DNA of 64,000 bases from an uncultured Candidatus Saccharibacteria bacterium (GCA_964479725.1 CAYZNF010000004.1:12002-76001); one strand, 5' to 3'; positions 11,472 to 38,043 are shown, counted from the stretch's first letter. Translations and numbers: made by a program. The notes: a model not told the origin generated them from the letters alone.

Positions 11472-11572
11472 TTCTGCACAGCCTTGGAGCTTTCTTGTTT
11501 ATTTGGCGCGAGATTGCGTTGTGCTATAATGATCCATCATCGTTCTTCAATACAACAGCTAGTCGCAGACTA

Positions 11573-12943
11573 ATGACAAAAGAAGAACTTTGGCAAGCCG
11601 TGCTTGCCCAACTCCAATTTCATATTTCTCCGGCCAATTTTGCCACATGGCTGAAGAATACTTTTATCCTTTCTAAAAAAGGTGGCCAGCTTCTTGTGTC
11701 CGTGCCGAATAATTTTTCGAAAGAGTGGCTCGAAAACAAATATAACAAGCTGATATTTAAGATTTTAAAGGAAACAGACCACGAAATAAAAGAGATTTTA
11801 TATACGGTAGAAAAAGTTCCCCAGAAACCAAAAGAAGCCCCAACTCCCAGCCCAATTTCCCATTCTGCCGCAATGGTCGCGGAGGCGCAGCTTGAATTCC
11901 AGGAATTCAAGGTAAACAAAACCACAAACCTCAACCCAAAATATACTTTTGAGAATTTTATCGTGGGCCCTTTCAATGAATTGGCTAACGCCGCTTCTTT
12001 GGCCATTACCCAGCACCCGGGAACAGTGTACAACCCCCTTTTCGTATACGGGGGAGTGGGGCTGGGCAAAACCCATCTCTTGCAGGCAACAGGCAACAAG
12101 ATAGCAAAGGATTTCCCGGAAAAGAAAGTGCGCTATATTTCTTCGGAACGCTTTACGTCGGGAGTTGTCTCGGCCATCCGCAACCGTACGGTTGATGAAT
12201 TTCGCGTTTCCTACCGCGACATTGATATTTTTATCTTAGACGACGTGCAATTTCTTGCCGGCAAAGACAAAACCCAGGAAGAGCTCTTCCATACGTTTAA
12301 TACCCTGTACGAGCACGGCAAGCAGGTTGTTTTTTCGTCCGACCGGCCGCCAAAATCTATTCCGGCCCTGGAAGAGCGTTTGCGTTCCCGCTTCGAGGGG
12401 GGCATGGTCGCGGACGTCAGCATGCCAGACTACGAAACAAGACTGGCCATTTTGAAATCGAAAATGCAAGAAAAAAACTTTATGCTGGGCGAAGATATAT
12501 GTGAATACATAGCATCGCACATCCAGAGAAACATTAGGGAGCTGGAAGGCGCTCTTAACCGGCTGTATGCGCACTTCAGGCTCATAAACAAGGCGCCAAC
12601 CCTTGTGGATGCTAAATCCGCGCTCAAAACAGTCATACAAAGCCCCAACAAAATGATAAACCATAAGAAAATCATCCAGATTGTGGCTGAATTTTATGAT
12701 ATCAAAGAAAAAGACATTATCGCGCCCTCCCGCAAAAAGGAGGTTGTAAAACCAAGACAGATTGCCATGTACCTGCTCCGCGAAGAATTAAAAAGTTCCT
12801 TTCCCTTTATTGGCAAAAGATTTGGGGGCAAAGATCACACCACAGCAATTTATGCCTGTGAAAAAATTGGGAAAGAAATGCAGGAATCCGAAATTTTGTT
12901 TGATGAAATCAATCTAATAAAACAGAGGATGTACAGTGGATAA
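11573..12943 (+). CDS. dnaA: Chromosomal replication initiator DnaA (456 aa)
   Basis: MTKEELWQAVLAQLQFHISPANFATWLKNT, Walker A GGVGLGKTHLLQA, and C-terminal KPRQIAMYLLREELKSSFPFIGKRFGGKDHTTAIYA. I prefer the start at 11573 because the track start at 11387 would overlap rpmH. TGcTATAAT lies at 11522-11530. Confidence 0.9.
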   Translation: MTKEELWQAVLAQLQFHISPANFATWLKNTFILSKKGGQLLVSVPNNFSKEWLENKYNKLIFKILKETDHEIKEILYTVEKVPQKPKEAPTPSPISHSAAMVAEAQLEFQEFKVNKTTNLNPKYTFENFIVGPFNELANAASLAITQHPGTVYNPLFVYGGVGLGKTHLLQATGNKIAKDFPEKKVRYISSERFTSGVVSAIRNRTVDEFRVSYRDIDIFILDDVQFLAGKDKTQEELFHTFNTLYEHGKQVVFSSDRPPKSIPALEERLRSRFEGGMVADVSMPDYETRLAILKSKMQEKNFMLGEDICEYIASHIQRNIRELEGALNRLYAHFRLINKAPTLVDAKSALKTVIQSPNKMINHKKIIQIVAEFYDIKEKDIIAPSRKKEVVKPRQIAMYLLREELKSSFPFIGKRFGGKDHTTAIYACEKIGKEMQESEILFDEINLIKQRMYSG

Positions 12944-17673: not shown

Positions 17674-20130
17674 ATGCCATTTTACATTGTATTGTCCGCG
17701 TTTCTCCTGGTTTCTTTCGGCGTACTTTTATTTTTGTATATAAAACAAAAGGAAAAAAAGAGCTTGCTCTCAAGCCTTAATACCTCCCTTTTTTTGGTAT
17801 TGATGCCAAAGTATGAAGCAAAACAAGAAGGCGCCGCGCAAAAAGACGAAAAGGCCCTGGTAGCGCAAATGGAGCAATTCTACTTAAGCTTTTTGCATTT
17901 GCGAGGGCCCGGTTTTTTTCAGTCGTTATTTGCTCCCCCTCCGAGCATAACCCTGGAGATTGCTTCCCGGATTGGAGGCTCCGACATTTCGTTTTACGTT
18001 GCCGTGCCGCGGTTTCTCCAAGGAGCTTTTGAAAAATATGTGCAAGGAGTATATCCGAAGGCGGTTGTGGAAAAAATCCCGCAGGATTATACGGTATTTG
18101 AACCTGGAGGAGCTTCTGCCGGAGGAGTAGTGCGCTTGAGAAATACCCCATTTTTCCCCATTGCGACGTATAAGTCTTTGGAGCAGGACCCTTTGGGCGC
18201 CTTGACAAATGCCTTGAGCAAGATACAGCCAGACGAAGGCGCGGCCCTGCAGGTTGTTATTAGGCCTGTTTCTAAAGGGCATTGGCGAGGATACGGAGAA
18301 AACGTAATAAAGCACATTCGCGAAGGAAAACCGCTAAAACAGGCTCTGGCAGACAGCATGAGGGGGCCGCTGGCTCAAATGGCCCTGGACGTATTCAATG
18401 GTTTAACCCAGGGCAATTCTTCTGAAAAGAAACAGCAAGAGCAGACCATGGAAGCTGAAAAGAAAAAGAAAGAAGACCAGGCGGGGGACGATCAGATCGT
18501 GGAAGCAATACGCCAAAAAACTCAAAAAGAAGTTTTTGACGTAAATATTCGTATCATAGTTTCGGCGCAAACCCAAGCGCGAGCCGAAGAAATTTTCGGA
18601 CACTTTGAAGGAGCATTCGGGCAGTTCTCCAGGCCTCCGCTCAATAATTTTGAAATTGTAAAACTGCGAAAAAAGAGCCTCAAAAAACTTATCTACGATT
18701 TCAGTTTTCGCAATTTCAGCAATGCCTATCGAAATATTCTCAATACAGAAGAGCTAGCAAGCATTTACCATTTCCCAACCAAATTCACGGAAACCCCTTA
18801 CATTAAATCCGCCAAAGGAAGCGCCGCCGCTCCGCCGGCAAATCTTCCCGCCGCGGGGCCGGTTGTTTTGGGGGTTTCAAAATTTCGCGGGGAGGAGAGA
18901 AAAGTATTCTTTGCTTCGCGGGGCGACAGAAGAAGGCATTTTTATGTTGTGGGGCAAACCGGAACAGGTAAAACAAGCATGCTCCAGGAAATGATCCGCC
19001 AGGATATTGAGAACGGCGAGGGCGTTGGCGTAGTTGATCCGCACGGGGAATTGGTAGAAGCGGCATTGGCATGTGTGCCAAAGGATCGCGTGAAGGATGT
19101 GGTGTTGTTTGAGCCGTTTGATTTGGAGCGGCCGTCGGGCTTAAACATGCTTGAGTACGATACTCCCGAGCAAAAGGATTTCGCGGTTCAGGAAATGATA
19201 ACCATTTTCCATAAACTTTTTCCTCCCGAAATCATCGGTCCCATGTTTGAGCATAATATGAGAAATGCTTTGCTGGCCCTTATGGCAGATCACGACAACC
19301 CCGGCACTCTTGCTGAAATCCCCCGTATTTTTACGGATGATGAGTTTTTGCAGGCCAAACTGCAAAAGGTGGCAGACCCTATGGTGCGCAACTTTTGGCT
19401 CAAGGAATGGAAACAGCTTACCGGCTCCACAAAATCTGATATGCTGGGGTATATTGTTTCGAAGGTTGGCAGGTTTGTTGAAAACGACATGATGCGCAAT
19501 ATCATTGGCCAATCTCATTCAAGCTTCAATTTGGAAGCTGTCATGGACGAAAAGAAAATCTTTTTGGCCAATCTATCCAAAGGAATGACTGGCGAAGTTA
19601 ACAGCTCTCTTCTCGGACTTATTTTAGTGTCAAAAATGCAAATGGCCGCAATGAAGCGAGCTCGTATTGCCGAGGAGGACCGCCAGGATTTTTATTTGTA
19701 CATAGACGAATTCCAAAACTTTACCACGGACAGTATTGCCGTTATACTTTCCGAGGCGAGAAAATACCGCCTAAGCCTTATTATGGCCCACCAGTACATT
19801 CCCCAGCTTACGAATGAAATAAAAAATGCGGTCTTGGGAAATGCCGGAACCATAGGAGCCTTCAGGGTGGGCGCCGAAGACGCGGAATTTTTGGAAAAGC
19901 ATTTTACTCCCGAGTTCTCGAAGTTTGACTTGATGAATCTCGACAATTTCAATTTGGCCGTAAAAATGCTAATCAATAATATGGTGTCCTCGGCGTTCCA
20001 AATCCAAACCCTTCCTCCGCAAAAGGGCAACAAAGAAATGGTGGAACCTATAAAAAATATTTCAAAGCTCAAGTACGGAAGAAAGCGTTTCATAGTCGAA
20101 AGCGAAATTTTAGAAAGGGCTAAATTGTGA
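17674..20130 (+). CDS. VirD4/TraD/TraG-like type IV coupling-protein-family ATPase (818 aa)
   Basis: N-terminal TM helix (FYIVLSAFLLVSFGVLLFLYI), Walker A VVGQTGTGKTS, Walker B FYLYIDEFQNF, then ILSEARKYRLSLIMAHQY, which is typical of the TraD/VirD4 C-terminal region. Confidence 0.65.
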   Translation: MPFYIVLSAFLLVSFGVLLFLYIKQKEKKSLLSSLNTSLFLVLMPKYEAKQEGAAQKDEKALVAQMEQFYLSFLHLRGPGFFQSLFAPPPSITLEIASRIGGSDISFYVAVPRFLQGAFEKYVQGVYPKAVVEKIPQDYTVFEPGGASAGGVVRLRNTPFFPIATYKSLEQDPLGALTNALSKIQPDEGAALQVVIRPVSKGHWRGYGENVIKHIREGKPLKQALADSMRGPLAQMALDVFNGLTQGNSSEKKQQEQTMEAEKKKKEDQAGDDQIVEAIRQKTQKEVFDVNIRIIVSAQTQARAEEIFGHFEGAFGQFSRPPLNNFEIVKLRKKSLKKLIYDFSFRNFSNAYRNILNTEELASIYHFPTKFTETPYIKSAKGSAAAPPANLPAAGPVVLGVSKFRGEERKVFFASRGDRRRHFYVVGQTGTGKTSMLQEMIRQDIENGEGVGVVDPHGELVEAALACVPKDRVKDVVLFEPFDLERPSGLNMLEYDTPEQKDFAVQEMITIFHKLFPPEIIGPMFEHNMRNALLALMADHDNPGTLAEIPRIFTDDEFLQAKLQKVADPMVRNFWLKEWKQLTGSTKSDMLGYIVSKVGRFVENDMMRNIIGQSHSSFNLEAVMDEKKIFLANLSKGMTGEVNSSLLGLILVSKMQMAAMKRARIAEEDRQDFYLYIDEFQNFTTDSIAVILSEARKYRLSLIMAHQYIPQLTNEIKNAVLGNAGTIGAFRVGAEDAEFLEKHFTPEFSKFDLMNLDNFNLAVKMLINNMVSSAFQIQTLPPQKGNKEMVEPIKNISKLKYGRKRFIVESEILERAKL

Positions 20131-20137
20131 TTTAAAT

Positions 20138-22507
20138 ATGCCAAAACGTAGAAGGGGTCCTGAAGACCAAGGGGGAGACCGTGGTCAAACAAAAGATCTA
20201 AAAGATCTAAGAGAACTAGATGCTTTTGTAGGAGAGTTTCCACCCGCTACAGAGAACCCGGGCGATGATCCTGGCCGAGAAAATCCGAGAGAGGCCGGGG
20301 ATAAAGATGTAGATAGAGTGGTCGATGCTGTTGTAGAGTCAAATGGCGGCGAAGGGGTTGCTGAAAACGAAATTGACAGAAGAATTGGTGTTGCGGCGAA
20401 TGAACTTCTAATGCAAAAAGGCAAGCCCCGTTACTCTCAAGCTCAAGCAGAGACATGGATGAGGGGCATGTCAGAAAGACAAAGAATAGAATTTGCGCGG
20501 AGAATGAGGAATATTCTAGAGCAAAAACCCGTCGTACCCAAGAGAGAGCCTGCTTCTCCCCCAAAAAAAGTAGAGAAAAGAGACGATGTCGCGGAAGGCG
20601 GGGCAAAAGGAATGAGGAGATTGGAAAGCGATGCGGTTAACGCCTATTATCAAAAAAAGCTGGCAGGGGGTACTCAAGAAGAGTTGGATGCGATTTTAGC
20701 GCAATTTGGCGGACAAGGAGTTGCTTCTGCCGTCCTGAACACTATTCCTGGGCGCGTAGACAGGCTTATCGTCCCGGCCGAAGGCGGCAAGGCTCCAGTG
20801 GGCAGGCAAAAAGACGCAAGCGATGACGAAAGAAATAAAAGAGAACGGCGGGAAAAGTCTCCCGAGGGAAGGACAATAGAAGAAAAAGCGATTGCCTTGC
20901 GAAGGGTGCGCGATGGAAAATTGCGTGAGATTGCTAATGCTCTGTCCGGTAATAGAATTGACGAAGACCAAGCCGCACAAACACGAAGGCAGATTGAAAA
21001 AGAATATCAAGAAGCTATGGGGTTATTGGGGCCAGAAGCGCAGAAGTTTCTTTCTAGAGAGACAATATCTCCGACCGTTGCCAGTGCGGATGTAAGGATT
21101 GGCAGTGGCGAGAGACAAAGAAGTCCCGAAAGAAGGAAGGAGATAGTTGTTGAGGGAGAAAAGGAAAGGGAAAAAGAAAGAAAGAGAAAATTCGAGGAAA
21201 GATGGAACGCGACCGGGAAAAGATTTAATGCGGAAAAATTTAGAATTAATCCTGACACCGTAAAGGAGATGAAAGGGCTCATAGAGGAGGTCCAGCAGAT
21301 TTTTGTGGCGGAAGAAGGCAGAAAATTTATTTCAAAAAACAAAAAAGAATTTGCCTCGGTCATAGGAGATGTTGACCCAAACGAACTTGATGGGGATCGT
21401 GTGTGGGAGCTGGTATGGAACAGACAAGACTTTAGGGGGCAAATCGAAGGAAGCTTGAAATGGAACCAGTTGGACGGTTTGAGAGATATGCTGGGAAAGT
21501 ACAGCAAGGGAGATCTTCCTCCGGAAGTAAGGGTTCTGTTGTTTAAGGAGCTTTCGCGGGCGCAGGGAGTAAGACAAGAGGTTTTGGTGGAGTTGTGGGA
21601 AAAAATTGAAGGCAGGAAACTTGACGAGCAGGCCCGACAGGGATTGGGTACTCCAGAAGACTATATGCAAGTACGACAGCAGGAAATTTTGGTTAGCCAA
21701 AAATTGGCGGAAAGGAGAACTAAGATTCTTGTTGATCATGCCATAGCAATGGGGGGAACGGGACACGTGCTTAGCTTGGATGAGAGCGAAATGCAGAGGA
21801 TTGCCGACGATTTGGCTCAAGTCTTTAAGGGAGAGGCGTATATTAATCAAGACGCTCTATACGCTCTTCTTGAGCAAGGTTACAATATCAGAGAGACTAA
21901 AAAGAAGACGGGTGCGTTTTGGATATTTGGAGCCGGAGACGTAAAGCTGAAGAATAGGAATGGAGAGACAAAAATTATTAAGGCAAAAGAAGTGCGAGTA
22001 TTCTTTAGCGGGTTAAACGAAAAACTGGCAAACGAAACTGCGAAAGAGGTGCAGGCCATTCTTTCTGAAGAATGGAAAGGAAGGTTTGAAGCAAACAAGG
22101 CCTCCCTTATTTCGGCTATGGCCGAGAGAATGCCAGAAAGTATAGTGGCCGAGATATACAGCAAAGTCAGGGAAGAGCTTGAGGCGGACTTTCTGCGCCA
22201 GTACGCCGAGGAAAAAAAGAAAAAAGGGCCAGGCCAAAAATTAGAGCAGCGTCTCAAAGCAGAAGGAAAAGATTTGGGAGCTCTAGCGGAAAAAGCTCTT
22301 GAGCTTTCAGGACAGGATTTAAGCGAAGAAGATCAAGAAGAAGCGATTAGGGGGTTGATGGGCGAATTTGGTTTTGGCGTGGATGATGCGGCGTGGGGCG
22401 CAGTTAAAGGAGGAAGGCAATATGCTACTTTGAAACAGTACGCGGCAAAAGGAAAAATGGGATGGTTCGACGGGCTGTTAAAGTTCTTTGATTCCTTTGT
22501 AAAATAA
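20138..22507 (+). CDS. Hypothetical large, highly charged protein (789 aa)
   Basis: The ORF starts 7 nt after the coupling-ATPase stop. The N-terminal ~350 aa are K/E/R/D-rich and look low-complexity; the C-terminal ~430 aa are more ordered. I recognise no family. Confidence 0.55.
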   Translation: MPKRRRGPEDQGGDRGQTKDLKDLRELDAFVGEFPPATENPGDDPGRENPREAGDKDVDRVVDAVVESNGGEGVAENEIDRRIGVAANELLMQKGKPRYSQAQAETWMRGMSERQRIEFARRMRNILEQKPVVPKREPASPPKKVEKRDDVAEGGAKGMRRLESDAVNAYYQKKLAGGTQEELDAILAQFGGQGVASAVLNTIPGRVDRLIVPAEGGKAPVGRQKDASDDERNKRERREKSPEGRTIEEKAIALRRVRDGKLREIANALSGNRIDEDQAAQTRRQIEKEYQEAMGLLGPEAQKFLSRETISPTVASADVRIGSGERQRSPERRKEIVVEGEKEREKERKRKFEERWNATGKRFNAEKFRINPDTVKEMKGLIEEVQQIFVAEEGRKFISKNKKEFASVIGDVDPNELDGDRVWELVWNRQDFRGQIEGSLKWNQLDGLRDMLGKYSKGDLPPEVRVLLFKELSRAQGVRQEVLVELWEKIEGRKLDEQARQGLGTPEDYMQVRQQEILVSQKLAERRTKILVDHAIAMGGTGHVLSLDESEMQRIADDLAQVFKGEAYINQDALYALLEQGYNIRETKKKTGAFWIFGAGDVKLKNRNGETKIIKAKEVRVFFSGLNEKLANETAKEVQAILSEEWKGRFEANKASLISAMAERMPESIVAEIYSKVREELEADFLRQYAEEKKKKGPGQKLEQRLKAEGKDLGALAEKALELSGQDLSEEDQEEAIRGLMGEFGFGVDDAAWGAVKGGRQYATLKQYAAKGKMGWFDGLLKFFDSFVK

Positions 22508-26639: not shown

Positions 26640-27959
26640 TTATTCGGCAGTTTCCCGTTCTATTTCTTCTAGGGTTGTCATGTGCCGCAAAACCTTTAGC
26701 AATCCGTCCTGCCGCATGGGAATCATGCCTTCTTTTACCGCGAACGATTGGATGTCTGAAGTGGATGGAGATTTCAGGACAAAGGACTCCATTTTTTCTG
26801 TTACGGCAATTGCTTCAAAAATTCCAATCCTGCCCTTGTATCCCGTAAAATTGCATTGGCCGCATCCTTTGGCCTTCGGCAGTAGCAATGGGTGGGCAAT
26901 TTCCGGACGAAACTCTTTTTTGATGTCCTTTAACGCGTCTATTATTTCTTTCTCTGTTTTCTCGTCTGCCGCGGCAAGTTCCTTGCATTGCTGGCACAGC
27001 TTTCTTACTAAACGCTGGGCAATGATAAGGTTTGCGGCCGAGGCCATAACAGGAAGTTTTGCCCCCAGGCTCAAAAGTCTTGAAAATGCCCCCGCCGCGT
27101 CGTTGGTATGCAGGGTGGCAAGGACAAAATGCCCGGTGAGAGCGGCCTGGAGAGCAATCTCGGCTGTTTTTTCGTCCCTAATTTCTCCCACCAAAATGAC
27201 ATCGGGATCCTGGCGCACTATGGCTTGGAGGCCAGTGGCAAAGTCATAGCCCTTGGAGGGATTTACCTGGGTTTGCGAAATCCCTTCCAGGTGATACTCA
27301 ATAGGATCTTCAATGGTAATAATCTTGATTTCAGGTTGTCGAATGGCCCGTAAAAATGCGTATAAGGTAGTTGTTTTGCCAGATCCCGTTGGGCCGGTAA
27401 CGATAATCATGCCGTTCGGTTTTTTAATCTCGTTTTGAAAGACATCTAAAAGGTCTTCCCTCAGCCCCAACTCTTCAATCGCTACAAGGCTTTGGGGGTT
27501 AAGTACGCGCATGACAAGGGATTCTCCGTATTCTGATGGAAGGGTAGAGACGCGCACTTCTACTGCTGTTTTTTCCTGGAGGAGGAATGAAAATCTTCCG
27601 TCCTGGGGACGATCGGTAATGTTAAGTTTTATGCCAGAGGAAACAAGCTTAAGCCGAGAAAGTATTTGTTCGTACAGGGACGAAGAAAAAATTCCCGCGT
27701 CATGGAGGATTCCGTCAATACGCAGTCTTGTTTGGACGTTATCTTGCGTTGGTTCAAAGTGGATGTCGGATGCTTTAAGATATACTGCCGAAGCCAGGAT
27801 AAAATCGATAATTTCTGTAATGGGCTTGCCTTGCATGGTGCCAAGCTGCTCTTGAAAACCGGCAAGATTGGGAACGCGTGAGCTTACATGCGAAAGCATA
27901 GCCTCTGAAAGGGAAATTTCACCTATCAATTTTCTTTTTGTCGTTACGCCTTGTTCCAT
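26640..27959 (-). CDS. GspE/PilB-family type II/IV secretion (type IV pilus assembly) ATPase
   Basis: ASDIHFEP, Walker A VTGPTGSGKTTTLYA, PDVILVGEIRD, LATLHTNDA, and the Cys cluster CQQC...CGQC. Confidence 0.8.
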   Translation of the reverse strand: MEQGVTTKRKLIGEISLSEAMLSHVSSRVPNLAGFQEQLGTMQGKPITEIIDFILASAVYLKASDIHFEPTQDNVQTRLRIDGILHDAGIFSSSLYEQILSRLKLVSSGIKLNITDRPQDGRFSFLLQEKTAVEVRVSTLPSEYGESLVMRVLNPQSLVAIEELGLREDLLDVFQNEIKKPNGMIIVTGPTGSGKTTTLYAFLRAIRQPEIKIITIEDPIEYHLEGISQTQVNPSKGYDFATGLQAIVRQDPDVILVGEIRDEKTAEIALQAALTGHFVLATLHTNDAAGAFSRLLSLGAKLPVMASAANLIIAQRLVRKLCQQCKELAAADEKTEKEIIDALKDIKKEFRPEIAHPLLLPKAKGCGQCNFTGYKGRIGIFEAIAVTEKMESFVLKSPSTSDIQSFAVKEGMIPMRQDGLLKVLRHMTTLEEIERETAE

Positions 27960-28851: not shown

Positions 28852-29331
28852 ATGAAAAAACAAGAAAAATTTTTGGAAAACGCAGTCTTTCCTCTTTCTT
28901 CGGCGTTGGGAATGCGCAAATTGGGAATGGAATTTGGAAAATATTTGCTGAATCTTCCCCTAAGAAGGGGCGCTTTAGCGGTTGGTTTGCGGGGAAATCT
29001 TGGGAGCGGCAAGACCACATTTGTCCAGGGGGTCGCGAAGGTGCTTGGAGTGCAGGAAAAAGTATTGAGTCCGACTTTTGTGATATGGAAGTCGTATTCC
29101 GTGGGAACGGGGAGCGAGGCTCGGATGTTTTCCCACATCGATTGCTATCGCACCGCGGCTAAAGAGGATCTTTTGGCGCTCGGATGGAGGGAGACAATAA
29201 AAAATCCGCGGCATATTATAGTAATTGAGTGGGCGGAAAAAATTCCCCAGCTTTTGCCCGAAGACGCTATTGTCCTTTCTTTTTCATCTACCGGGGAAAA
29301 ATCCCGCGAAATTAAAATCATCAGCTTATGA
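28852..29331 (+). CDS. tsaE: tRNA t6A biosynthesis ATPase TsaE
   Basis: LRGNLGSGKTTFVQGVAKVLGV...SPTF...HIDCYR. Confidence 0.8.
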   Translation: MKKQEKFLENAVFPLSSALGMRKLGMEFGKYLLNLPLRRGALAVGLRGNLGSGKTTFVQGVAKVLGVQEKVLSPTFVIWKSYSVGTGSEARMFSHIDCYRTAAKEDLLALGWRETIKNPRHIIVIEWAEKIPQLLPEDAIVLSFSSTGEKSREIKIISL

Positions 29332-31532
29332 ACCCAAAACGGCTTCTTCTCATTGACGCAAACTCGCTTATACATCGGGCTTTTCACGCGATCCCTCCCC
29401 TGCATACTTCAAGGGGCGAGGCGGTGAACGCGGTGTATGGTTTTTTGCAAATTCTTTTGCGGGTCCTGCAAGAGTTTCATCCCGATTACGCGGCGGCCGC
29501 TTTTGATGTAGAGGGGCCAACGTTTCGTCATAAAAAATTTGACCGCTACAAGGGTAAACGCCAAAAAGCTCCCGATGAATTATATGCCCAGTTTGCGCCA
29601 ATCAAAACGCTCTTGAAAATACTAGGCATACCAACCTATGAACTGCAAGGATATGAAGCAGACGATATTATTGCGACTCTTGCTGTGTCTGCCCGGGACA
29701 AAAAGGATGCAAATGAAGTTATTATTGTAAGCGGCGACATGGATGTTTTGCAGCTCGTGGATGATCGGGTAAAAGTGTACACCATGAAAAAAGGCATTGG
29801 CGAAACAGTGCTTTATAACAGGCCAAGTGTTGAAAAGCGTTTTGGAGGATTGCGACCGGATCAATTGGCCGACTACAAAGGGTTGCGGGGCGATGTTTCA
29901 GATAATATCCCTGGAGTTCGGGGGATTGGGGAAAAGACAGCTATACAACTGCTTTTGAAGTTTGGGTCCGTAGAAAGTCTTTACGAGGCGCTGGAAAAAG
30001 GGAAAGACGAGGCAAAAGAAATTACTCCCCGTCTCCAGAAGCTTTTGGCGGACGAAAAGGAGAAGGCTTTCATGAGTAAGATGCTGGGTATGCTGGATAG
30101 GGCCGTGCCAATCGAAAACTCTCTCCAAAATTTTTCCGAAGAAAACCTAAAAAGGGAAGATTTCAGGAAAATGCTCTCTGATTTGGAGTTCCAAGGTCTC
30201 ATTAAGAGACTGTTTCCTGGAAACAACCAAGAGTCCCTATTCGGCGAAAAAAATCCAGAGCCCAATATATTCGAGAAGATCGAACAGCTAAAGAAAATAG
30301 GGGTGCTTTCGCAGGACCTATGCGAAATGGAAAGGCATTTGGCCCCTGTTATTGACCAGATGGAGAAGGCGGGCATTCAAATCAATAAAGAGTATTTTTT
30401 TCGGCTGTCTTCTGAAATCTCAAAAGAGCTGGAGGAATTGCGAAAACATATTTTTAAAGAAGCGGGCAGGGAATTTAACGTAAATTCGCCCCAGCAGCTT
30501 TCGGGAATTTTGTTTGAGGATTTGCGCATTTCTATCAAGGGTCTCAAGAAAACACCGGGAAGGGTGGTTTCAACCGCCGCTTCCGAGCTGGAAAAGCTGC
30601 GCGGAGAGCATCCTATCGTGGATTTTTTGCTGAAATACCGCGAATTGCAGAAACTTTTTACGACATATATCAATACTCTTCCCGAGCTTACCGACAGCCA
30701 GGGCCGCATCCATACCCACTTTGATCAGCTTGGCACGGCTACCGGTCGTATTTCCTCTTCCAATCCAAATCTCCAGAATATTCCGTTAAAGGGAGATTGG
30801 GGAACTAGAATTAGGAAAGGTTTTGTGGCGGCTGAAGGTTTCCAATTTGCCGGGTTTGATTATTCTCAAATGGAACTGCGAGTGGCGGCCCATGTTGCAG
30901 ATGACAAGAAAATGCAGGAATTTTTCTTGGAAAACAAGGATATTCATCGCATGACCGCGGCGGAAGTTTTTGGCATTCCTCCGGAGAAAGTTACAGATGA
31001 AATGCGATACCGGGCCAAGGCGCTGAACTTTGGGGTATTGTACGGCATGGGAGCATCCGGATTTGCCAGGAGTGCGGGCATTCCCATGGAAGAAGCCCAA
31101 GAGTTTATCGACAATTACTTTACGCGTTTCCCCCAGATTATGGCTTATATCGAAAAAACCAAACAATTTGGGCGTGAGCATGGCTATACGGAAACGATGT
31201 TTGGCAGGAAGCGGTATATTCCGGAAATAAATTCTACGAATTTCCAGATCAGATCCGCGGCAGAGCGGGAAGCGGTAAACCATCCCATACAGGGGGGAGC
31301 GGCTGATTTAATGAAAATGGCAATGGTGCGTGTGGCGGAGCAGGTTCTTCCTTCGTATCCGAACGCCCGCATGCTCATACAGATTCACGACGAATTGTTG
31401 TTTGAAATTAAAGAGGATATACTAAATAAAATAATCCCCGAAATTAAAACCGCGATGGAGGGTGTGTGTGCGATGAAGATTCCTTTGGTTGTGGGAGTGG
31501 AACACGGAAAGGATTGGGGAAGCATGCGATAA
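29328..31532 (+). CDS. polA: DNA polymerase I (5' nuclease + polymerase domains; 3'-5' exonuclease region very short)
   Basis: N-terminal LLLIDANSLIHRAFHA and GDVSDNIPGVRGIGEKTA (5' nuclease/HhH). Polymerase motifs RIHTHFDQLGTATGRISSSNPNLQNIP, DYSQMELRV and QIHDELLFE. Only 734 aa in total. Confidence 0.85.
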   Translation: MNPKRLLLIDANSLIHRAFHAIPPLHTSRGEAVNAVYGFLQILLRVLQEFHPDYAAAAFDVEGPTFRHKKFDRYKGKRQKAPDELYAQFAPIKTLLKILGIPTYELQGYEADDIIATLAVSARDKKDANEVIIVSGDMDVLQLVDDRVKVYTMKKGIGETVLYNRPSVEKRFGGLRPDQLADYKGLRGDVSDNIPGVRGIGEKTAIQLLLKFGSVESLYEALEKGKDEAKEITPRLQKLLADEKEKAFMSKMLGMLDRAVPIENSLQNFSEENLKREDFRKMLSDLEFQGLIKRLFPGNNQESLFGEKNPEPNIFEKIEQLKKIGVLSQDLCEMERHLAPVIDQMEKAGIQINKEYFFRLSSEISKELEELRKHIFKEAGREFNVNSPQQLSGILFEDLRISIKGLKKTPGRVVSTAASELEKLRGEHPIVDFLLKYRELQKLFTTYINTLPELTDSQGRIHTHFDQLGTATGRISSSNPNLQNIPLKGDWGTRIRKGFVAAEGFQFAGFDYSQMELRVAAHVADDKKMQEFFLENKDIHRMTAAEVFGIPPEKVTDEMRYRAKALNFGVLYGMGASGFARSAGIPMEEAQEFIDNYFTRFPQIMAYIEKTKQFGREHGYTETMFGRKRYIPEINSTNFQIRSAAEREAVNHPIQGGAADLMKMAMVRVAEQVLPSYPNARMLIQIHDELLFEIKEDILNKIIPEIKTAMEGVCAMKIPLVVGVEHGKDWGSMR

Positions 31533-31556: not shown

Positions 31557-32516
31557 ATGCGAATTTCCCTTCGTTTTCTTACTCTTGGAGTTATCATGAT
31601 CGTGCTGGTGGCAGGAGGATTGCTGCTGGTTTCATTGGCCAGCGTTGTTTTTTACAACCAAAGCATCGGTCAGATGACGGACGACCATAAAAATATTATT
31701 CGCAATGTAGGGCATCTTTTGTACGGTTCATACCAAAGCGGGATGACTGCGGAAGAATTTTCCCAATTGCGCCAGCGCATCATTGAAAACGCCGGAGAGA
31801 GGAAAACTATCATTTTTTTCAGGGTAATTAACGCGGATGATAAAAAGATTGCAGCGAGCAAAAATCGGGAAGAAATCGGGACTGTTCTTGAATTTATTCC
31901 AGCCCCTCCCCTAAAAGAGCCGGCAATACGCAGTATGCGCTGGGATGGGGAGGGTATCCTAGAGCTTTCTTTTCAAAGCAACCCAAAAGAAGTCCTTACT
32001 TTGGGCGTGAGTTTAAAGCAGACTCGTGATTCGGTGTTTCGTCTTGCTGTGGGGGAGGCTCTGGTTGTGTTTCTGGTGACAGTCACCGTGGGCTTGCTTT
32101 TATACTCGCTTTTTCGTCGGCTTTTTCTCTCGCCGTTGAATGCTCTCCAGCGAGGCATGCAGAGAGCTCGCCAAGGGAATCTTGATATCGTTCTGCCCAC
32201 GGCTATTGCGGCAGAAATAGGAGACCTCGCCCAATCTTTTAATGGAATGCTGTTGGATTTGCGCCATACCCAGGCTAATCTCCAGGAAACAAATACGGTT
32301 TTGGAAATTAAGGTAAACGCAAGGACGAGAGAGTTGCGAGAATTGGCAAACCGGCTGGAGGCTAAGGCCCAGGAAAGGACAGAAGAACTGCAGAGCCGGG
32401 TAAAGGAGTTGGAAAAGTTCAGGAGGTTTATTGTGGGGAGGGAATTAAAGATGATGGAGCTAAAAAAAGAGTTAAAGCGTTTGCAACAGTCGCAAGAAAA
32501 TAATGGTAGTAACTAA
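31557..32516 (+). CDS. Membrane sensor module: 2 TM + HAMP + coiled coil, with no output domain (319 aa)
   Basis: TM1 LTLGVIMIVLVAGGLLLVSLASVVF, TM2 LVVFLVTVTVGLLLYSLF, HAMP-like LSPLNALQRGMQRARQGNLDIVLPTAIAAEIGDLAQSFNGMLLDL. It ends in ELEKFRRFIVGRELKMMELKKELKRLQ. Confidence 0.65.
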   Translation: MRISLRFLTLGVIMIVLVAGGLLLVSLASVVFYNQSIGQMTDDHKNIIRNVGHLLYGSYQSGMTAEEFSQLRQRIIENAGERKTIIFFRVINADDKKIAASKNREEIGTVLEFIPAPPLKEPAIRSMRWDGEGILELSFQSNPKEVLTLGVSLKQTRDSVFRLAVGEALVVFLVTVTVGLLLYSLFRRLFLSPLNALQRGMQRARQGNLDIVLPTAIAAEIGDLAQSFNGMLLDLRHTQANLQETNTVLEIKVNARTRELRELANRLEAKAQERTEELQSRVKELEKFRRFIVGRELKMMELKKELKRLQQSQENNGSN

Positions 32517-33849
32517 TCATATGGCATCATTTATTAGTTTTGGCGTTGGTACATCAATAAAAGAAAATATCGTTGAAGCCGCCGAGGAAGCGGCGCAATT
32601 GGCGCGCTCGAAGATAGAAAAAGATCCCCAGCTGCTCATTGTTTTTTGCACCTTCAATTATGACTCGAAACAATATTCAGAAGCCTTAAAAAAAATTAGG
32701 AGTTTTTTCCCCGCCGGAACGCCGCTGGTGGGAGGAACAGCTTTAAGTTTTTTCGGAGACGGCAAAGTATTTGACGCTTTCAGCACCGGAGGCAAGGAAA
32801 GGGGCGTAGGAGTGTTCGCGGTAGCGTCGGATTACTTAAAAATTGGGGTGGGGCTTGGCGATGGGGTAGATAAGGATCCAGAGGCGGCGGGAAGGATTGC
32901 GATTACAAGTGCGCTGGAAAATCTAGACTACAATCCCTCGGTGGCTTATATGGCAATGGTTCAGCGAGGCGCCAAAGATATGATTAATTTTCGTCCTATG
33001 AACGGGCTTATTATTACTCCCGGGGGAACGCCAAAGCACCTCTTTATCGGGAACTCTATTCTTCGGGGAATTACTTCTGTAACGAAAAAGGCGGTACGCC
33101 TTACAGGAGGAGGAACAGGATGCCTTATCACGCAAGACGGGCAATTTACCCCCACCTATCAATTTTTTGGGGACGAAGTGTATAACGAGGCGGTTATTAC
33201 CGTAGTGTTCGGATCTGACCTGGAAATTGGCTACGGTACAGCCTCGGGGTTTCAGCCACTGGGTCCGGGTGTTTTTGTCAATAAGGCCGAGGGGTGGACC
33301 ATAAAGGAAATTGAGGGCAAGCCGGCTGTTGAAGCTATGGCTGTAATGTTTGAAAAAGAAATAGGAATAAAAAAGGAGGATTTTGTAAAAGGACCGCTGT
33401 ATGCAATTGGCGCCAAAGGATATGGATTCGGAATTTCAGAGGTTGCTTCCAAGTCCTACTGGCCCATTGTCCCCCTAGCAGTTACGAAGGAGGGGTATGT
33501 GGTGGTTACGACAGAGGTAAAAAACGGAATGGGAATCGCGCTTGTTGAAAATAAAAAGGAAAATTGCAAGAACGCCGCCGTAGAAGCCGCCCAAATCATG
33601 GCTGATGATGTTAAAACAGCCGACTTTGGCCTTGTGATCATGTTCTCATGCGCTATGCGCGGATTTATTCTTAGAGAAGAATATGCCCAAGAAATGGATA
33701 TGATAAAGCAGGTAACAGGCAAAGAAACCGCGGTGTTCGGATTAGGATCCGCGGAAGAAATCGGATTTTATCGGACAGGAGACATGATGGGTTCAAACTA
33801 CATAATTACCATGATGGGAGTTTCCAATAAACTTATTTCTGAAGTATGA
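32503..33849 (+). CDS. FIST (FIST_N/FIST_C) sensory domain protein
   Basis: ~445 aa: FGVGTSIKENIVEAAEEAAQLARSKI...LLIVFCTFNYD...PLVGGTA (FIST N-domain pattern), with C-terminal FSCAMRGFIL. An alternative start at 32521 (MASFISF) avoids overlap with the upstream stop. Confidence 0.6.
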   Translation: MVVTNHMASFISFGVGTSIKENIVEAAEEAAQLARSKIEKDPQLLIVFCTFNYDSKQYSEALKKIRSFFPAGTPLVGGTALSFFGDGKVFDAFSTGGKERGVGVFAVASDYLKIGVGLGDGVDKDPEAAGRIAITSALENLDYNPSVAYMAMVQRGAKDMINFRPMNGLIITPGGTPKHLFIGNSILRGITSVTKKAVRLTGGGTGCLITQDGQFTPTYQFFGDEVYNEAVITVVFGSDLEIGYGTASGFQPLGPGVFVNKAEGWTIKEIEGKPAVEAMAVMFEKEIGIKKEDFVKGPLYAIGAKGYGFGISEVASKSYWPIVPLAVTKEGYVVVTTEVKNGMGIALVENKKENCKNAAVEAAQIMADDVKTADFGLVIMFSCAMRGFILREEYAQEMDMIKQVTGKETAVFGLGSAEEIGFYRTGDMMGSNYIITMMGVSNKLISEV

Positions 33850-34439
33850 GATCGAAAAAGCTCCCAAAGATTGCAGGGGGAGGAGAAAACGAGAATGCAT
33901 GGAAACAGGATATAGCAGAGTGTCTTCCCTATGCCGTGCTTGTGTTTAACGGCAAAGGAAGAATTGCGTATGCGAACCCGGCGTTTTTCCAGATTTTAGG
34001 GCAAAATCAACAGAAAATTATCGGGAAAGAAGTGCGTATTATTTTTTCCAATCGAGATCAGGATAGAGGGATGGGGGTGCTGCAAAACGCATTGCGCAAT
34101 CAAAAAAAAGTGCAGGATTTCCAGGTGATTCTGACTACGGGAACAGGCAAAGATATTCCTATGGCGCTTTCTATCATACCTCTTATGGAACGAGAATTGG
34201 GCATTGTAACCCTTTCCGATGTCCGTCAGCTGCAGGGTTTGCTCCAGGGGTTGCAGCGTGCCCAGATGACACTGCAAGAGCAAGTTGAAAGACGAACAAA
34301 AGAGTTGCGAGAAAAAGTTGAAGAATTGGAACAATTCCACCGGCTTACGGTGGGAAGAGAAATGAAGATGGTCGAATTGAAAAAAGAATTGGAACAGCTG
34401 AAAGAACATCGGGGAATTGCCGAGGGAAATAAACCCTAG
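33846..34439 (+). CDS. PAS domain + coiled coil protein without an output domain (197 aa)
   Basis: PAS-like PYAVLVFNGKGRIAYANPAFFQILGQNQQKIIGKEV. It ends in ELEQFHRLTVGREMKMVELKKELEQLK. Its start overlaps the FIST stop (ATGA). Confidence 0.6.
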   Translation: MRSKKLPKIAGGGENENAWKQDIAECLPYAVLVFNGKGRIAYANPAFFQILGQNQQKIIGKEVRIIFSNRDQDRGMGVLQNALRNQKKVQDFQVILTTGTGKDIPMALSIIPLMERELGIVTLSDVRQLQGLLQGLQRAQMTLQEQVERRTKELREKVEELEQFHRLTVGREMKMVELKKELEQLKEHRGIAEGNKP

Positions 34440-34459
34440 CTTTTAGAAAATATCTTTCC

Positions 34460-37222
34460 GTGCAAAAAAAATCGCAATCCATTGTCGCCATATTAGAGCA
34501 AATCTCTTCAGGGGTTCGGGTTAAAAAACCATTGCAGGAGATTTTTGATTTGATTGTCCCCCTGACTATACAGGCATTGGAAGCTCAATCTGCGGCGGTG
34601 TGGCTGGTGGCAAAAGAAGGAGATCGGCTTGAACTTGCAGCTTCTTATAATCTAAAAAAAGAGGTTGTTGAATATTTCAAGCCCAAGGAACACTGGCCGC
34701 GTCCCGAAGAGGGAATTGTCGGAAAAGCCTTCGGCGAGAAGCGCTGCTTTGTTGAGAGAAATATTCTGGAGCGGGCAGATGTGCCGGAGGCCTGGAAGGA
34801 GCTTATTAGGCAAGGGGTTTTCGATTTTAAAACCTTGCTTGCTAATCCGCTCCTTATAGAAGACGGCAAGGTTGTCGGAGTGCTCAACCTTTATTTTGCC
34901 GAAGATCGGAAATTTGCCGAAAAAGAATTTAATATTTTGCGCATTATAGCTAATTACCTCGGGACAGCCATCGAAGCCCGCACCCTCTTGGATTCGGTAC
35001 AGCAGAATCGCAACGAACTTGAGGCCGAAAGAGACCAGCTCTCGGCTCTTCAGCAAGCCACGCAATTTTTAAGTATTAGCACGGAAAAACCCCTCTTAGA
35101 AATTCTTAATGAGCTCTTGCAGAATATTGGCAAAGCAATACACGCCAGCGCTATTGCTTTGTGGCGTCCGACTCTCGACGGAAAGCATCTGTATATCTAC
35201 GCCCATCAGGGAATGACAGAAAACTATGTGACGTTATTTAACTCAAGGCCCTTATCTATGACTGGGCAGAATGTTGTGGGGACAGTTGCTTCTACGCGTA
35301 AGCCTTATTTTCTTCCTGATGTGCAAAAATTTCCCTGGAATGAAGATATCGACAAAAAACGCCTCAAGGTGGCGATTTCAGAAAAAGTTCTTTCTATAGC
35401 TAGTTTGCCCGTTGTAGTAAACGGAGAGCTTTTTGGGGTGCTTAATTTTTACTTTACCGATCCGAAGAATTATGCGGCCCAGGAACAGTATATCTTAGGA
35501 GTGGTAAGCAATATTTTTTCGATTGCGATTGGCAACTCTCAATACAGAGAAGAACTTCAGAAAGAACGCGATCAGCTGGCAAAGCTTCAACAGGGTGTTG
35601 AGGCTTTGAGCATCAGCTCTGCAACCTCCCTGCACGATCTTTTACTTAAACTTGTAAACACCGTGGGAGAAGCCGTAAGCACTCAAGCCATAGCGCTTTG
35701 GCGTCCGTCCCAGGATAAAAAGTTTTTGCAGCCCGCCATAGCAAGCGGGCTTCCCGAGGACTATATCGAATCGTTTCGGAAGTATCCAGTGCCCCTTAAC
35801 GCGCAAACAATTGTCGGAGAGGCGGCTTCGCGCCGGGCTCCGGTATTTTCAGGAAACCTGCAAATAAGAAAGCGAAACAAGATATATTCGGACAAGCTTA
35901 TTGAGCGTATGGAGCAAGCGAATATCCACTCGGTGGCAAGTTTCCCCCTTACTATCGAGAACGAGCTTTTCGGAGTATTAAATTTTTATTTTTCCCAGCG
36001 TCGCACCTACACGCCCAATGAACAATACATTCTTCAGGTGGCGGCCAACACCGTTGCTATTGCTATAGGAAACGTGCAGTATCGCCAGGAGCTTGAAGAT
36101 GCGCAGAGAGCTCTTTTAAATATTTTGGAAGATACCGACGAGGCTAAGCGCCGGGCCGAGCAGGAAAGGAATAAGACACAGCTTATCATTACCCATTTCA
36201 TGGACGGATTGATCGTGTTTAATTCGGAAGGAAGGGTTGACTTGGCAAACCCGCGTGCGGAATATCTGCTTTCGGCCACAGCGGAAGAAATGTTTGGGAA
36301 GTCAATAGAGGAACTCGGCAGTATTCCTGCTTTTGCCCCCGTATTGCAGGTGGTCCAAAAACAAGAAGAATCGGTTGACAGGAAAGAAGTTGAGATCGGC
36401 AAAGGGATTACCGTTGAGATTACGACGGTAGCTTTGGGTACGGAAACCGAGAAAGGCGGTACTACTATTGTTCTTCATGATGTTACCAGGGAGAAGCAGA
36501 TTGAACGTTTGAAAACAGAATTCGTTTCACTTGCCGCCCATCAGCTTCGCACGCCCTTGTCGGCAATAAAATGGACATTGCGCATGCTTTTGGATGGGGA
36601 TGTCGGCGCCATAAGCAAAGAGCAGAAGGAATTTTTGGACCGCACTTATACCTCCAATGAGCGGATGATTATGCTTATAAACGATCTGCTCGATGTAACA
36701 AGGATCGAAGAAGGGCGATATTTATACAAGCCTTCGTTTGTCCAGCTGGAGGCAATTGTTGAAAACGCGGTGCGTATGTATAAAGAAGAGGCGGAAAAAA
36801 AGAAGATAACCCTATCATTCGAAAATCCCAAAGAGCGCTTGCCTCATGTTCTGGTAGATGCCGAAAAAATAATGCTTGCTGTGCAAAATCTCATCGATAA
36901 CGCCATTAGATATACTGCCTCGGGAGGGAAAATACGGGTGGGTCTTGAAACAAAGCAGGGCAAGATGCAGGTATTTGTTTCGGATAATGGGGTTGGGATA
37001 CCGGCCGATGAGCAAAAACGCATTTTCCAGAAGTTTTTCCGGGCAAGCAATGTACGTACTCTCGACACCGAAGGATCCGGCCTTGGCTTGTATATAATCA
37101 AAAATATTGTCGAAGCTCATGGAGGAACTGTTTGGTTCGATTCGGAGGTTCAAAAAGGGACAACCTTTTATTTTACTCTTCCTATGCGACAAGAAATGGA
37201 AGAGTTCTTGAAAAAATTTTAG
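34460..37222 (+). CDS. Soluble hybrid sensor histidine kinase: 3 x GAF + PAS + HisKA + HATPase_c (920 aa)
   Basis: Three repeats end in GVLNLYFAED / GVLNFYFTDP / GVLNFYFSQR (GAF-like). The PAS is ITHFMDGLIVFNSEGRVDLANPRAEYLL, the H-box is EFVSLAAHQLRTPLSAI, the N-box is NLIDNAIRYT, and the G-boxes are DNGVGIP and GSGLGL. GTG start. Confidence 0.8.
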   Translation: MQKKSQSIVAILEQISSGVRVKKPLQEIFDLIVPLTIQALEAQSAAVWLVAKEGDRLELAASYNLKKEVVEYFKPKEHWPRPEEGIVGKAFGEKRCFVERNILERADVPEAWKELIRQGVFDFKTLLANPLLIEDGKVVGVLNLYFAEDRKFAEKEFNILRIIANYLGTAIEARTLLDSVQQNRNELEAERDQLSALQQATQFLSISTEKPLLEILNELLQNIGKAIHASAIALWRPTLDGKHLYIYAHQGMTENYVTLFNSRPLSMTGQNVVGTVASTRKPYFLPDVQKFPWNEDIDKKRLKVAISEKVLSIASLPVVVNGELFGVLNFYFTDPKNYAAQEQYILGVVSNIFSIAIGNSQYREELQKERDQLAKLQQGVEALSISSATSLHDLLLKLVNTVGEAVSTQAIALWRPSQDKKFLQPAIASGLPEDYIESFRKYPVPLNAQTIVGEAASRRAPVFSGNLQIRKRNKIYSDKLIERMEQANIHSVASFPLTIENELFGVLNFYFSQRRTYTPNEQYILQVAANTVAIAIGNVQYRQELEDAQRALLNILEDTDEAKRRAEQERNKTQLIITHFMDGLIVFNSEGRVDLANPRAEYLLSATAEEMFGKSIEELGSIPAFAPVLQVVQKQEESVDRKEVEIGKGITVEITTVALGTETEKGGTTIVLHDVTREKQIERLKTEFVSLAAHQLRTPLSAIKWTLRMLLDGDVGAISKEQKEFLDRTYTSNERMIMLINDLLDVTRIEEGRYLYKPSFVQLEAIVENAVRMYKEEAEKKKITLSFENPKERLPHVLVDAEKIMLAVQNLIDNAIRYTASGGKIRVGLETKQGKMQVFVSDNGVGIPADEQKRIFQKFFRASNVRTLDTEGSGLGLYIIKNIVEAHGGTVWFDSEVQKGTTFYFTLPMRQEMEEFLKKF

Positions 37223-37297
37223 GGGATTTAGCCCGAGTTTTGTCGGGGGACTTGCCGAAAATATCCAACATAGTACAATAGTATAAATACCCTTATT

Positions 37298-37663
37298 ATG
37301 AAAAAAATACTTCTGATCGAGGACGAAAAGCTGTTGGCCGACCTTTTGCAAAAAAAGCTGGTGGCGGAAGGATACAGGGTATTTGTAGCTGGTGACGGGG
37401 ACGCAGGTATCCAGGCCGCGAAAGACGAAAAGCCAAATCTTATTCTGCTCGACATGCTGCTTCCGAAAAAAGACGGCATTGGGGTCTTGGAGGGATTAAA
37501 CGAAATGGGTCTTTTGTCCGAAATTCCGGTTATCGTTATTTCTAATTCCGGGCAACCCGTAGAAATTGAACGGGCAAAGGAATTGGGGGTCAAGGATTGG
37601 CTTATAAAAGTGGAGTTTGACCCCAATGAAGTAATAGACAAGGTTAAGCAACATATTTCTTAA
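37298..37663 (+). CDS. Single-domain response regulator (receiver only)
   Basis: KILLIEDE...PNLILLDMLLPKKDG...VIVISN...K; 121 aa with no output domain. Confidence 0.8.
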   Translation: MKKILLIEDEKLLADLLQKKLVAEGYRVFVAGDGDAGIQAAKDEKPNLILLDMLLPKKDGIGVLEGLNEMGLLSEIPVIVISNSGQPVEIERAKELGVKDWLIKVEFDPNEVIDKVKQHIS

Positions 37664-37677
37664 AGCAATCTATAATT

Positions 37678-38043
37678 ATGGTTCGTATTGTGGTTGTTGA
37701 AGATGACAAGTTTTTGAGGGAGCTTATCGTGCAAAAGCTCACAAAGGAAGGGTATGACGTTACCGAGGCTGTAGACGGCGAGATTGGCGTACAGAAAATA
37801 AAAGAAGAACATCCGGACCTTGTTTTGCTGGATCTTATCCTGCCTGGTATAGATGGATTTGAGGTATTAAAGCAAGTCAAAGAAAATCCTGATACGGCAA
37901 AAGTGCCAATCATCATATTATCCAATCTTGGCCAGCAAGAAGACGTTGAGCGCGGATTAAAGCTTGGGGCTGTTGATTATCTTATTAAGGCTCACTTTAC
38001 TCCCGGAGAAATTGTAGAAAAGATACGGACCATAGTAAAATAA
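37678..38043 (+). CDS. Single-domain response regulator (receiver only)
   Basis: RIVVVEDD...PDLVLLDLILPGIDG...IIILSN...K; 121 aa with no output domain. Confidence 0.8.
   Translation: MVRIVVVEDDKFLRELIVQKLTKEGYDVTEAVDGEIGVQKIKEEHPDLVLLDLILPGIDGFEVLKQVKENPDTAKVPIIILSNLGQQEDVERGLKLGAVDYLIKAHFTPGEIVEKIRTIVK

Follow-up and report, generated by a model that had tools for sequence, protein, structure and literature searches.

A conserved C-terminal helical tail on output-less sensor proteins encoded beside a soluble histidine kinase in Candidate Phyla Radiation bacteria

The 64,000-nucleotide stretch CAYZNF010000004.1:12002-76001 (GCA_964479725.1), recorded as coming from an uncultured Candidatus Saccharibacteria bacterium and referred to here as the window, carries a cluster of six signalling genes at positions 31557-38043 in which two sensor proteins, one with a transmembrane (TM) and HAMP architecture and one with a PAS domain, end in the same conserved sequence. 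This tail, about 70 residues long, is a C-terminal module that had not been catalogued before, comprising one or two S-helix (ART/ERT) units, a distal motif and a lysine-rich end. It is a conserved terminal helix on diverse sensors that lack an output domain, and the genes encoding these sensors are positionally and often translationally coupled to the gene for one soluble histidine kinase. The resulting cassette is a variable sensor array placed before a constant core of a kinase and two receiver-only response regulators (kinase-REC-REC). We give an even chance to the tail being a transmitter or docking helix through which sensors that are encoded separately and can be exchanged for one another are coupled to the one soluble kinase.

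The TM-HAMP protein (319 aa, 31557..32516, + strand) is a membrane sensor without output, consisting of a first TM segment, an extracytoplasmic region of about 120 aa, a second TM segment, a HAMP domain (aa 185-236, Pfam E=3.9e-10) and the tail; its two hydrophobic segments lie at aa 1-35 and 158-191. The PAS protein (197 aa, 33846..34439, + strand) is a cytosolic sensor, likewise without output, with a PAS domain at aa 21-125 (Pfam PAS_9, E=4e-12). A sequence-only reading of this region had described both proteins as devoid of a kinase or other output and their C-termini as homologous, with roughly 22 of 37 positions shared; neither protein has a HisKA or HATPase_c match in Pfam, and a direct count over the same 37 residues finds 23 positions alike. 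Over a longer segment, aa 267-311 of the HAMP protein and aa 143-187 of the PAS protein are identical at 24 of 45 positions (BLASTP with composition adjustment, E=2e-12). The HAMP-protein tail (aa 251-319, 32307..32513, + strand), placed by BLASTP and fitting the family consensus, contains two S-helix units (ART at 255-257 and ERT at 273-275), the distal motif ELEKFRRFIVGRELKMMELKKELKRLQ (aa 284-310, nucleotides 32406-32486) and a short polar end. The PAS-protein tail (about aa 126-197, 34221..34436, + strand), placed by BLASTP and AlphaFold2, contains one S-helix unit (RRT at 149-151) followed by the distal motif ELEQFHRLTVGREMKMVELKKELEQLK (aa 160-186, nucleotides 34323-34403). A third copy of the motif was not found in any frame of the window. 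At the DNA level the two tails are 58% identical, falling to 40% at third codon positions, which points to selection on the tail protein and rules out recent gene conversion or a nucleotide-level element as the source of the likeness.

A 45-position profile built from the two window tails and one fragment was searched with HMMER against 1.84e9 representative proteins, returning 9055 matches at E<=1e-3 and 438 clusters at E<=1e-10. This exhaustive profile search took the place of a word-indexed search with a single 65-aa tail, which retrieved one fragment only and was too insensitive. When a 68-position tail profile (A4, 42 tails) was compared with 177,635 PDB sequences, including many coiled coils, the best E-value was 0.12, indicating that the tail signal is not generic coiled-coil composition; together with the 438 clusters, this disposes of the objection that the shared tail is simply a coiled coil of a common kind. 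The consensus of 133 tails reads IKVkARTkELeELaesLEekVKERTKELQeRieELEKFHrLTVGRELKMIELKKEIkkLKkeL, followed by a Lys-rich end, with ELEKFHRLTVGRELKMIELKKEI as the near-invariant distal motif. Across these 133 tails the conserved T is present in 98%, R in 88%, F in 94% and M in 99%, and the G-R-E triplet is invariant. No Pfam or NCBIfam model matched the tail above threshold, the consensus had no tblastn match among 72,556 plasmids, and neither a domain model nor a structure was found for it; literature searches on kinases of the Candidate Phyla Radiation (CPR), HAMP and FIST gave no description of the tail or the cassette. AlphaFold2 models the PAS-protein tail as one unbroken helix of 72 residues (aa 123-194), with a predicted local distance difference test score of 95-99 over aa 131-190; the model is trustworthy for the tail only, the PAS part having been predicted without alignment depth and being disregarded. 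The invariant Gly does not break the modelled helix and may mark a place where helices pack tightly. The helix is amphipathic, with regular hydrophobic a/d positions after the Gly, and a parallel coiled-coil dimer is the most probable form of the tail.

Nearly all the tails examined lie at the very ends of proteins. Among the best 150 database matches, 131 of the 135 motif-bearing proteins end 9-26 aa after the ...ELK of the core motif, and in 80 metagenome loci, a mutually related set that best matches the window-derived tail profile, every one of the 107 tail open reading frames (ORFs) detected with a hidden Markov model stops within 32 aa of the motif. None of 41 neighbouring kinases carries the distal motif. 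The sequence-only reading had described the segment as an internal linker of multidomain kinases in other organisms. This is true of the proximal part, an S-helix of the ERT type, which explains that description; it does not extend to the distal motif in the two sets above, where no kinase contains it, although weaker matches to the profile may include internal copies. The S-helix has been described as a coiled-coil segment of about 40 residues, with an ERT signature in its central heptad, located between two signalling domains (PMC1592074). The proximal tail carries the corresponding R-T signature after HAMP or PAS and answers to the ERT definition, however it does not lie between domains, being followed only by some 30 further conserved residues (FHRLTVGRELKMIELKKEI...) and a stop codon, and its S-helix units are often tandem duplicates.

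The domains that precede the tail are diverse. Pfam searches of 123 tail proteins identified HAMP in 39, as well as PAS, HisKA_7TM, dCache, Cache_3-Cache_2, PilS-6TM, flavodoxin, 5TMR-LYT and GAF, and no catalytic output domain, including HisKA and HATPase_c, was found in any of the 123. Automatic annotation at the Joint Genome Institute wrongly labels tail proteins "histidine kinases". In pairwise comparisons all 2080 pairs of tails were significantly alike, with a median identity of 53%, whereas the N-terminal parts of the same pairs were detectably alike in 366 of 2080, with a median of 28%. Minimal forms also occur: P0232 (65 aa, on 22 contigs) is a tail alone, P0052 (119 aa, locus L087 7001-7360) is one TM helix plus tail, P0194 (L089 7001-7348) is a coiled coil plus tail, and P0213 is a soluble HAMP domain plus tail. 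These minimal forms and the diversity of N-termini argue for an autonomous, portable module. P0232, P0052 and P0194 are encoded directly upstream of the kinase, which suggests that the tail by itself has a partner and a function of its own, for example tethering or constitutive modulation of the kinase. Two membrane proteins, P0011 (304 aa) and P0012 (306 aa), carry two full distal motifs in tandem per chain, and candidate tail-kinase fusions among the database outliers proved to be such tandem double tails or low-complexity acidic extensions.

The linkage of tail genes to a kinase gene is strong. At 44 loci at least 3 kb of sequence is available downstream of the last tail gene, and in 37 of these a HisKA-HATPase gene lies within 3 kb on the same strand, the stop codon of the tail gene overlapping the kinase start in 14 of the 37. 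Between one and seven tail genes (seven in L079) precede the single kinase, and a pair of receiver-only genes of about 122 aa follows it in most loci. The neighbourhood is usually that of the window, as confirmed on three long contigs with precomputed Pfam annotation, the order being yebC, ruvB and a T2SSE-ATPase gene in reverse orientation, then tsaE, polA, the sensor genes, kinase, REC, REC, (fpg) and holA in forward orientation, then rpsT and uvrB in reverse; L014, L070 and L071 show tail-kinase adjacency without the polA-holA surroundings. The sequence-only reading treated the six-gene order as a unit to be looked for in relatives, and named a lack of co-conservation as grounds for giving up its interpretation. 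The cassette is co-conserved, however the exact window order of HAMP-tail, FIST, PAS-tail, kinase, REC and REC is one variant among others and recurs in L062. The sensor block varies through optional FIST genes, a recurrent family of proteins of about 200 aa, small V4R-like proteins and a multi-pass membrane protein. The members of the 200-aa family have a weak match to Pfam V4R (E=0.04) and the pattern …KGE.RG…WYP…HP.YC…EETKC.F.GD.YHEYLIKW; they are encoded in one to three copies per locus between tail gene and kinase in L009, L015, L018, L034, L035, L046, L059, L068, L078, L079, L086 and L088, and not in the window, and are probably another stand-alone ligand-binding co-sensor. No further conserved partner gene was found among the recurrent neighbours. 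The gene after the receivers was considered as an output and rejected, as it encodes the housekeeping protein Fpg/MutM.

Several features of these neighbourhoods were observed in passing. In L087 (6016-6927), L088 (5707-6669) and L089 (5996-6931) the gene at the polA position encodes the 5'-3' exonuclease part only (303-320 aa), while the window PolA (29328-31532) has its full 734 aa, polymerase domain included. The interval between tail gene and kinase in L089 (7338-9433) contains a gene for an FAD/NAD-dependent oxidoreductase-like protein (340 aa), which may be a redox input, and an unannotated gene of 353 aa. A T2SSE/PilB-type ATPase gene at 26640-27959 on the - strand of the window, 3.6 kb upstream of the cassette, is kept in 24 loci; the linkage may be plain synteny, or the receivers may act on a type IV pilus-like machine.

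The soluble histidine kinase of the window (920 aa, GTG start, 34460..37222, + strand) contains three GAF domains, an acidic helix, PAS, HisKA (His694) and HATPase_c, in this order, as assigned with Pfam. The kinases encoded after tail genes belong to one family with a variable N-terminus (often an ERT-type coiled coil), an acidic helix, PAS, a dimerisation and histidine phosphotransfer (DHp) domain with the sequence EFVSLAAHQLRTPLSAIKW, and a catalytic and ATP-binding (CA) domain, and the window kinase core (aa 541-920) is about 47-53% identical to its counterparts elsewhere. The acidic helix, of the form ...ELEdSRkALMNILEDvEEARkrAEEEKnKT, caps the N-terminus of this core; in the window it spans aa 541-573 (YRQELEDAQRALLNILEDTDEAKRRAEQERNKT, 36080..36178, + strand; alignment of 41 kinases), and the strict motif [LM][LMI]N[IML][LM]ED is present in 32 of the 41. 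Over comparable segments its net charge is -2.2 and that of the distal tail +2.4, making the ALLNILED helix a candidate site on which the basic distal tail could dock. The sequence-only reading had suggested docking on the linkers between the GAF domains. As a general mechanism this is unlikely, since the GAF domains (34460-36079, aa 1-540) are unique to the window lineage among the 41 kinases: none of the 40 kinases of related cassettes (371-675 aa) has a counterpart, and the GAF triplet looks to be a set of additional cytosolic sensors fused to the kinase in this lineage. No convincing TM segment was found in the kinase, its sole hydrophobic window lying inside GAF2.

Comparison with NCBIfam models places the HAMP protein and the kinase side by side. 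Kinase residues 542-909 align with residues 229-594 of the 594-residue WalK model (E=1.7e-76, 258 bits against a cutoff of 725) and residues 539-908 with residues 23-390 of the 390-residue PnpS model (E=1.5e-77, 261 bits against a cutoff of 400), while aa 173-245 of the HAMP protein align with WalK 184-256, so that the two proteins match neighbouring halves of one WalK-like layout. As far as the ELE motif, the N-terminal coiled coil of the kinases and the proximal tail are homologous (hhalign probability 84%, E=8e-6); past this motif the tail is basic and the kinase helix acidic. The adjoining WalK halves, the adjacency of the genes and their stop/start overlaps fit the earlier proposal of separately encoded sensor pieces for one kinase.

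The receivers REC-A (REC1, 121 aa, 37298..37663, + strand, Pfam E=1.9e-19) and REC-B (REC2, 121 aa, 37678..38043, + strand, Pfam E=1.1e-27) have only Response_reg above threshold, and thus the make-up of CheY-like single-domain regulators; a weak Endo_dU match in REC-B scores 16.8 bits against a cutoff of 32.7. Both window receivers and both orthogroup consensuses contain the acidic pocket (E8-D9 / D9-D10), D52, S82 and K104. Across 26 loci, mean identity is 65% within the REC-A orthogroup and 72% within REC-B, with 45% between the groups, while in the same loci PolA is 37-62% identical (median 48%), TsaE 32-45% and HolA 25-36%. The unusual conservation of both receivers, which includes the alpha4-beta5-alpha5 region (SNSGQPVE..DWLIKTEFDP / LSNLGQ.EDVE..DYLIKAHFTPGEI), implies conserved protein partners.

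The remaining member of the cluster, the FIST protein (442 aa, 32521..33849, + strand), is a cytosolic sensor without the tail in which FIST_N and FIST_C were identified by Pfam (E=1.6e-24 and 7.7e-13). It has the general FIST_N and FIST_C architecture of NosP-type sensors, however it scores 20 bits against a cutoff of 450 with the NosP model NF041558 and is not a NosP equivalog. A contig scan with this protein recovered one distant SAR324 relative only, and most FIST genes of cassettes elsewhere encode proteins about 25-28% identical to it. All six ORFs lie on the + strand and are closely spaced, as first described from the sequence. An ATG at 32503 that overlaps the HAMP stop codon (TAA, 32514-32516) would give a FIST protein of 448 aa, and the NCBI record starts the protein at the ATG at 32521 (442 aa); the FIST stop and PAS start overlap in ATGA at 33846-33849; 20 nucleotides separate the PAS stop from the GTG start of the kinase, and 75 nucleotides separate the kinase from REC1. 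The cluster is not clearly a self-contained operon: polA ends 24 nucleotides upstream of the HAMP gene and holA starts 8 nucleotides downstream of REC2, so the six genes may belong to a longer transcription unit. In Pfam and NCBIfam scans none of the six proteins has a DNA-binding domain, as had been noted, and the kinase is the only enzymatic output. Identical proteins are encoded on contig JACPIB010000066 of GCA_016188315.1, a Candidatus Wildermuthbacteria metagenome-assembled genome (CPR/Patescibacteria).

Elsewhere in the window, a full-length dnaA gene (DnaA_N, Bac_DnaA, Bac_DnaA_C) at 11387-12943 places the sequence probably near the chromosomal replication origin. Type IV secretion or conjugation-like genes (TrbL/VirB6-like, TraG P-loop/VirB4-like ATPase, TrwB-type coupling protein) and, beside them, an ORF of 789 aa without a Pfam match occupy 41-1627, 5079-6848, 17674-20130 and 20138-22507. 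The ORF lies in a region that is unusually strongly strand-skewed, with a GC skew of 0.30 and an AT skew of 0.28 at 20-22 kb.

Because tail genes almost always lie just upstream of one kinase gene, the tail probably plugs separate sensors into that kinase. In the mechanism proposed here, the TM-HAMP and PAS sensors would each bind the soluble kinase encoded downstream through the tail, the most likely contact being between the distal segment GRELKMIELKKEI and the acidic ALLNILED helix of the kinase, forming a mixed helical bundle. Tail binding would then modulate autophosphorylation, the tail-less FIST protein and the three GAF domains would serve as added cytosolic inputs, and the kinase would phosphorylate the two distinct CheY-like receivers, which would act on their partners via protein-protein contacts. 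Physical docking, the docking surface and the direction of regulation are all inferred. The system could be pictured as a kinase of the WalK/PnpS type in which the TM-HAMP input half is a chain of its own, the scheme being extended to an interchangeable multi-sensor array with an overall logic like that of chemoreceptors feeding CheA. More tentatively, and with distinctly less confidence than the docking role itself, the tail could represent a transmitter domain of a new type, a portable helix that folds on its own and plugs any separate sensor into one class-I kinase, giving genome-reduced CPR bacteria a chemoreceptor-array-like hub with an evolutionary origin separate from that of CheA/CheW, in which sensors are swapped in a fixed chromosomal slot between polA and the kinase.

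A number of observations weigh against docking on the kinase. Tail genes without a kinase nearby are found in 7 of the 44 informative loci, and the adjacency counts are not phylogenetically independent, because the 80 loci are related best matches and most of them share polA...holA synteny. Charge complementarity between tail and acidic helix (+2.4 and -2.2) is weak, and in the window kinase this helix is preceded by three GAF domains instead of forming a free N-terminus. The outliers inspected included no natural tail-kinase fusion. The orthologs of the window FIST protein in L003, L004, L005 and L006 (39-43% identity; one from Nealsonbacteria) stand alone in CPR genomes beside pyrF, prs and a penicillin-binding protein gene and no signalling genes, hence not every cassette sensor is tied to the cassette. 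These lone orthologs had given a first impression that the cluster is not conserved, which holds for FIST only.

Among known systems, the WalK/PnpS/PhoR kinases are alignable over the full PAS-HisKA-HATPase_c half, and the HAMP protein and kinase together cover the full WalK plan. In the cassette, however, the input and catalytic halves are separate chains, TM segments and HAMP residing on the 319-aa protein, the input half has the added tail, several alternative input halves precede one kinase, the window kinase falls below the NCBIfam equivalog cutoffs, and the receivers lack the OmpR-type DNA-binding domain. Methyl-accepting chemotaxis proteins acting through CheA and CheY offer a parallel in varied sensors (TM-HAMP, PAS, Cache) that end in a long coiled coil whose kinase-proximal motif is very conserved, one soluble kinase and CheY-like receivers; unlike them, tail proteins have no MCPsignal domain (PF00015) and a single modelled helix in place of a hairpin, and the cassette kinase is a class I HisKA kinase and not CheA. 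CheW, CheR and CheB were not found in the loci examined, and CheA and CheW are absent from the recurrent neighbour families and scanned ORFs. The H-NOX/HnoK, NosP/NahK and three-component systems share the arrangement of output-less sensors beside a kinase, presumably acting in trans, and the window FIST protein and the V4R-like proteins of about 200 aa in relatives fit this co-sensor pattern, NosP/NahK differing in that the window protein is not a NosP equivalog. To our knowledge, sensor and kinase in these systems make contact through globular surfaces, and a portable docking tail common to several sensors is not part of them.

The amphipathic helix with its regular a/d positions would also suit a tail that serves only as an oligomerisation device, forming homo- or heterodimers or bundles among sensors that affect the kinase via other surfaces or a shared ligand or metabolite, or that have a function unrelated to the kinase. 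Mixed oligomers are plausible in that paralogous tails within a genome are about as alike (53%) as tails between genomes, and the tandem double tails of P0011 and P0012 and the loci with no kinase nearby are in keeping with them. Dimers would not, however, need the invariant G-R-E, the conserved F, T and M or the 53% identity across otherwise unlike sensors, and tail genes are strongly tied in position to the start codon of the kinase. Tail-only and TM-plus-tail mini-proteins directly before the kinase suggest a partner for the tail; we regard oligomerisation alone as unlikely. Somewhat less likely again is docking on REC-A and/or REC-B, by which sensors would control where or whether the receivers are phosphorylated or sequestered. 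C-terminal peptides of chemoreceptors tether CheB and CheR, and short helical peptides bind CheY. The receiver pair accompanies tail genes in most loci, its conservation exceeds that of PolA and includes alpha4-beta5-alpha5, and the cassette shows no other conserved partner gene. Yet it is the kinase gene that tail genes abut or overlap, not the receiver genes, and both the homology of the proximal tail to the kinase's own N-terminal coil and the adjoining WalK halves in the HAMP protein and kinase point to the kinase.

A degenerate first DHp helix, which would make the tail proteins truncated pseudo-kinases intercalating into the DHp bundle of the real kinase, was considered since the F-x5-G spacing of ELEKFHRLTVGRE equals the F-x5-H spacing of EFVSLAAHQLRTPL in the kinases, and the tail alone has sub-threshold Pfam matches to HisKA_2 (E about 0.02) and His_kinase (E=0.005). 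These matches stand amid dozens of coiled-coil noise matches and cover the part of the model after the His, profile-profile comparison of the tail with the DHp of neighbouring kinases gives an hhalign probability of 0.5%, and the predicted structure is a single helix with no hairpin, leaving an H-box or DHp alpha1 identity unsupported and this origin very improbable. The chance that the arrangement is an artefact, with one large kinase broken by sequencing or assembly error or pseudogenisation, or with a compositional coiled-coil resemblance between the tails, is negligible. Short or overlapping intergenic distances and differing frames superficially resemble a frameshifted gene; nevertheless the 107 ORFs on 80 independent contigs and the 131 of 135 database proteins stop at the same position after the motif, which no kinase carries, and this refutes the split-gene explanation that the sequence-only reading had itself put forward as a possible undoing. 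Identical proteins in the NCBI metagenome-assembled genome, E-values far beyond compositional likeness and the empty PDB control argue likewise.

Members of the CPR/Patescibacteria encode very few two-component systems and kinases are scarce among them (PMC10805038, PMC7137472). What is new here is a large unannotated tail family together with a CPR signalling cassette that is conserved, the system itself being of a known kind, two-component signalling with trans-acting sensors. As the cassette is among the best-conserved blocks of the loci examined, it may be a principal route by which these uncultured episymbionts sense their environment or host. If the tail is a docking module, the sensory repertoire of these bacteria is underestimated by kinase counts, and domain-based censuses would miss up to seven sensors per kinase; the short length of the recombinant proteins involved makes the docking hypothesis directly testable. 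If true, the cassette would represent a natural, non-covalent and modular coupling of sensors to a kinase through a helix of about 70 residues, which would inform how signals pass across coiled coils and provide a part for sensor engineering.

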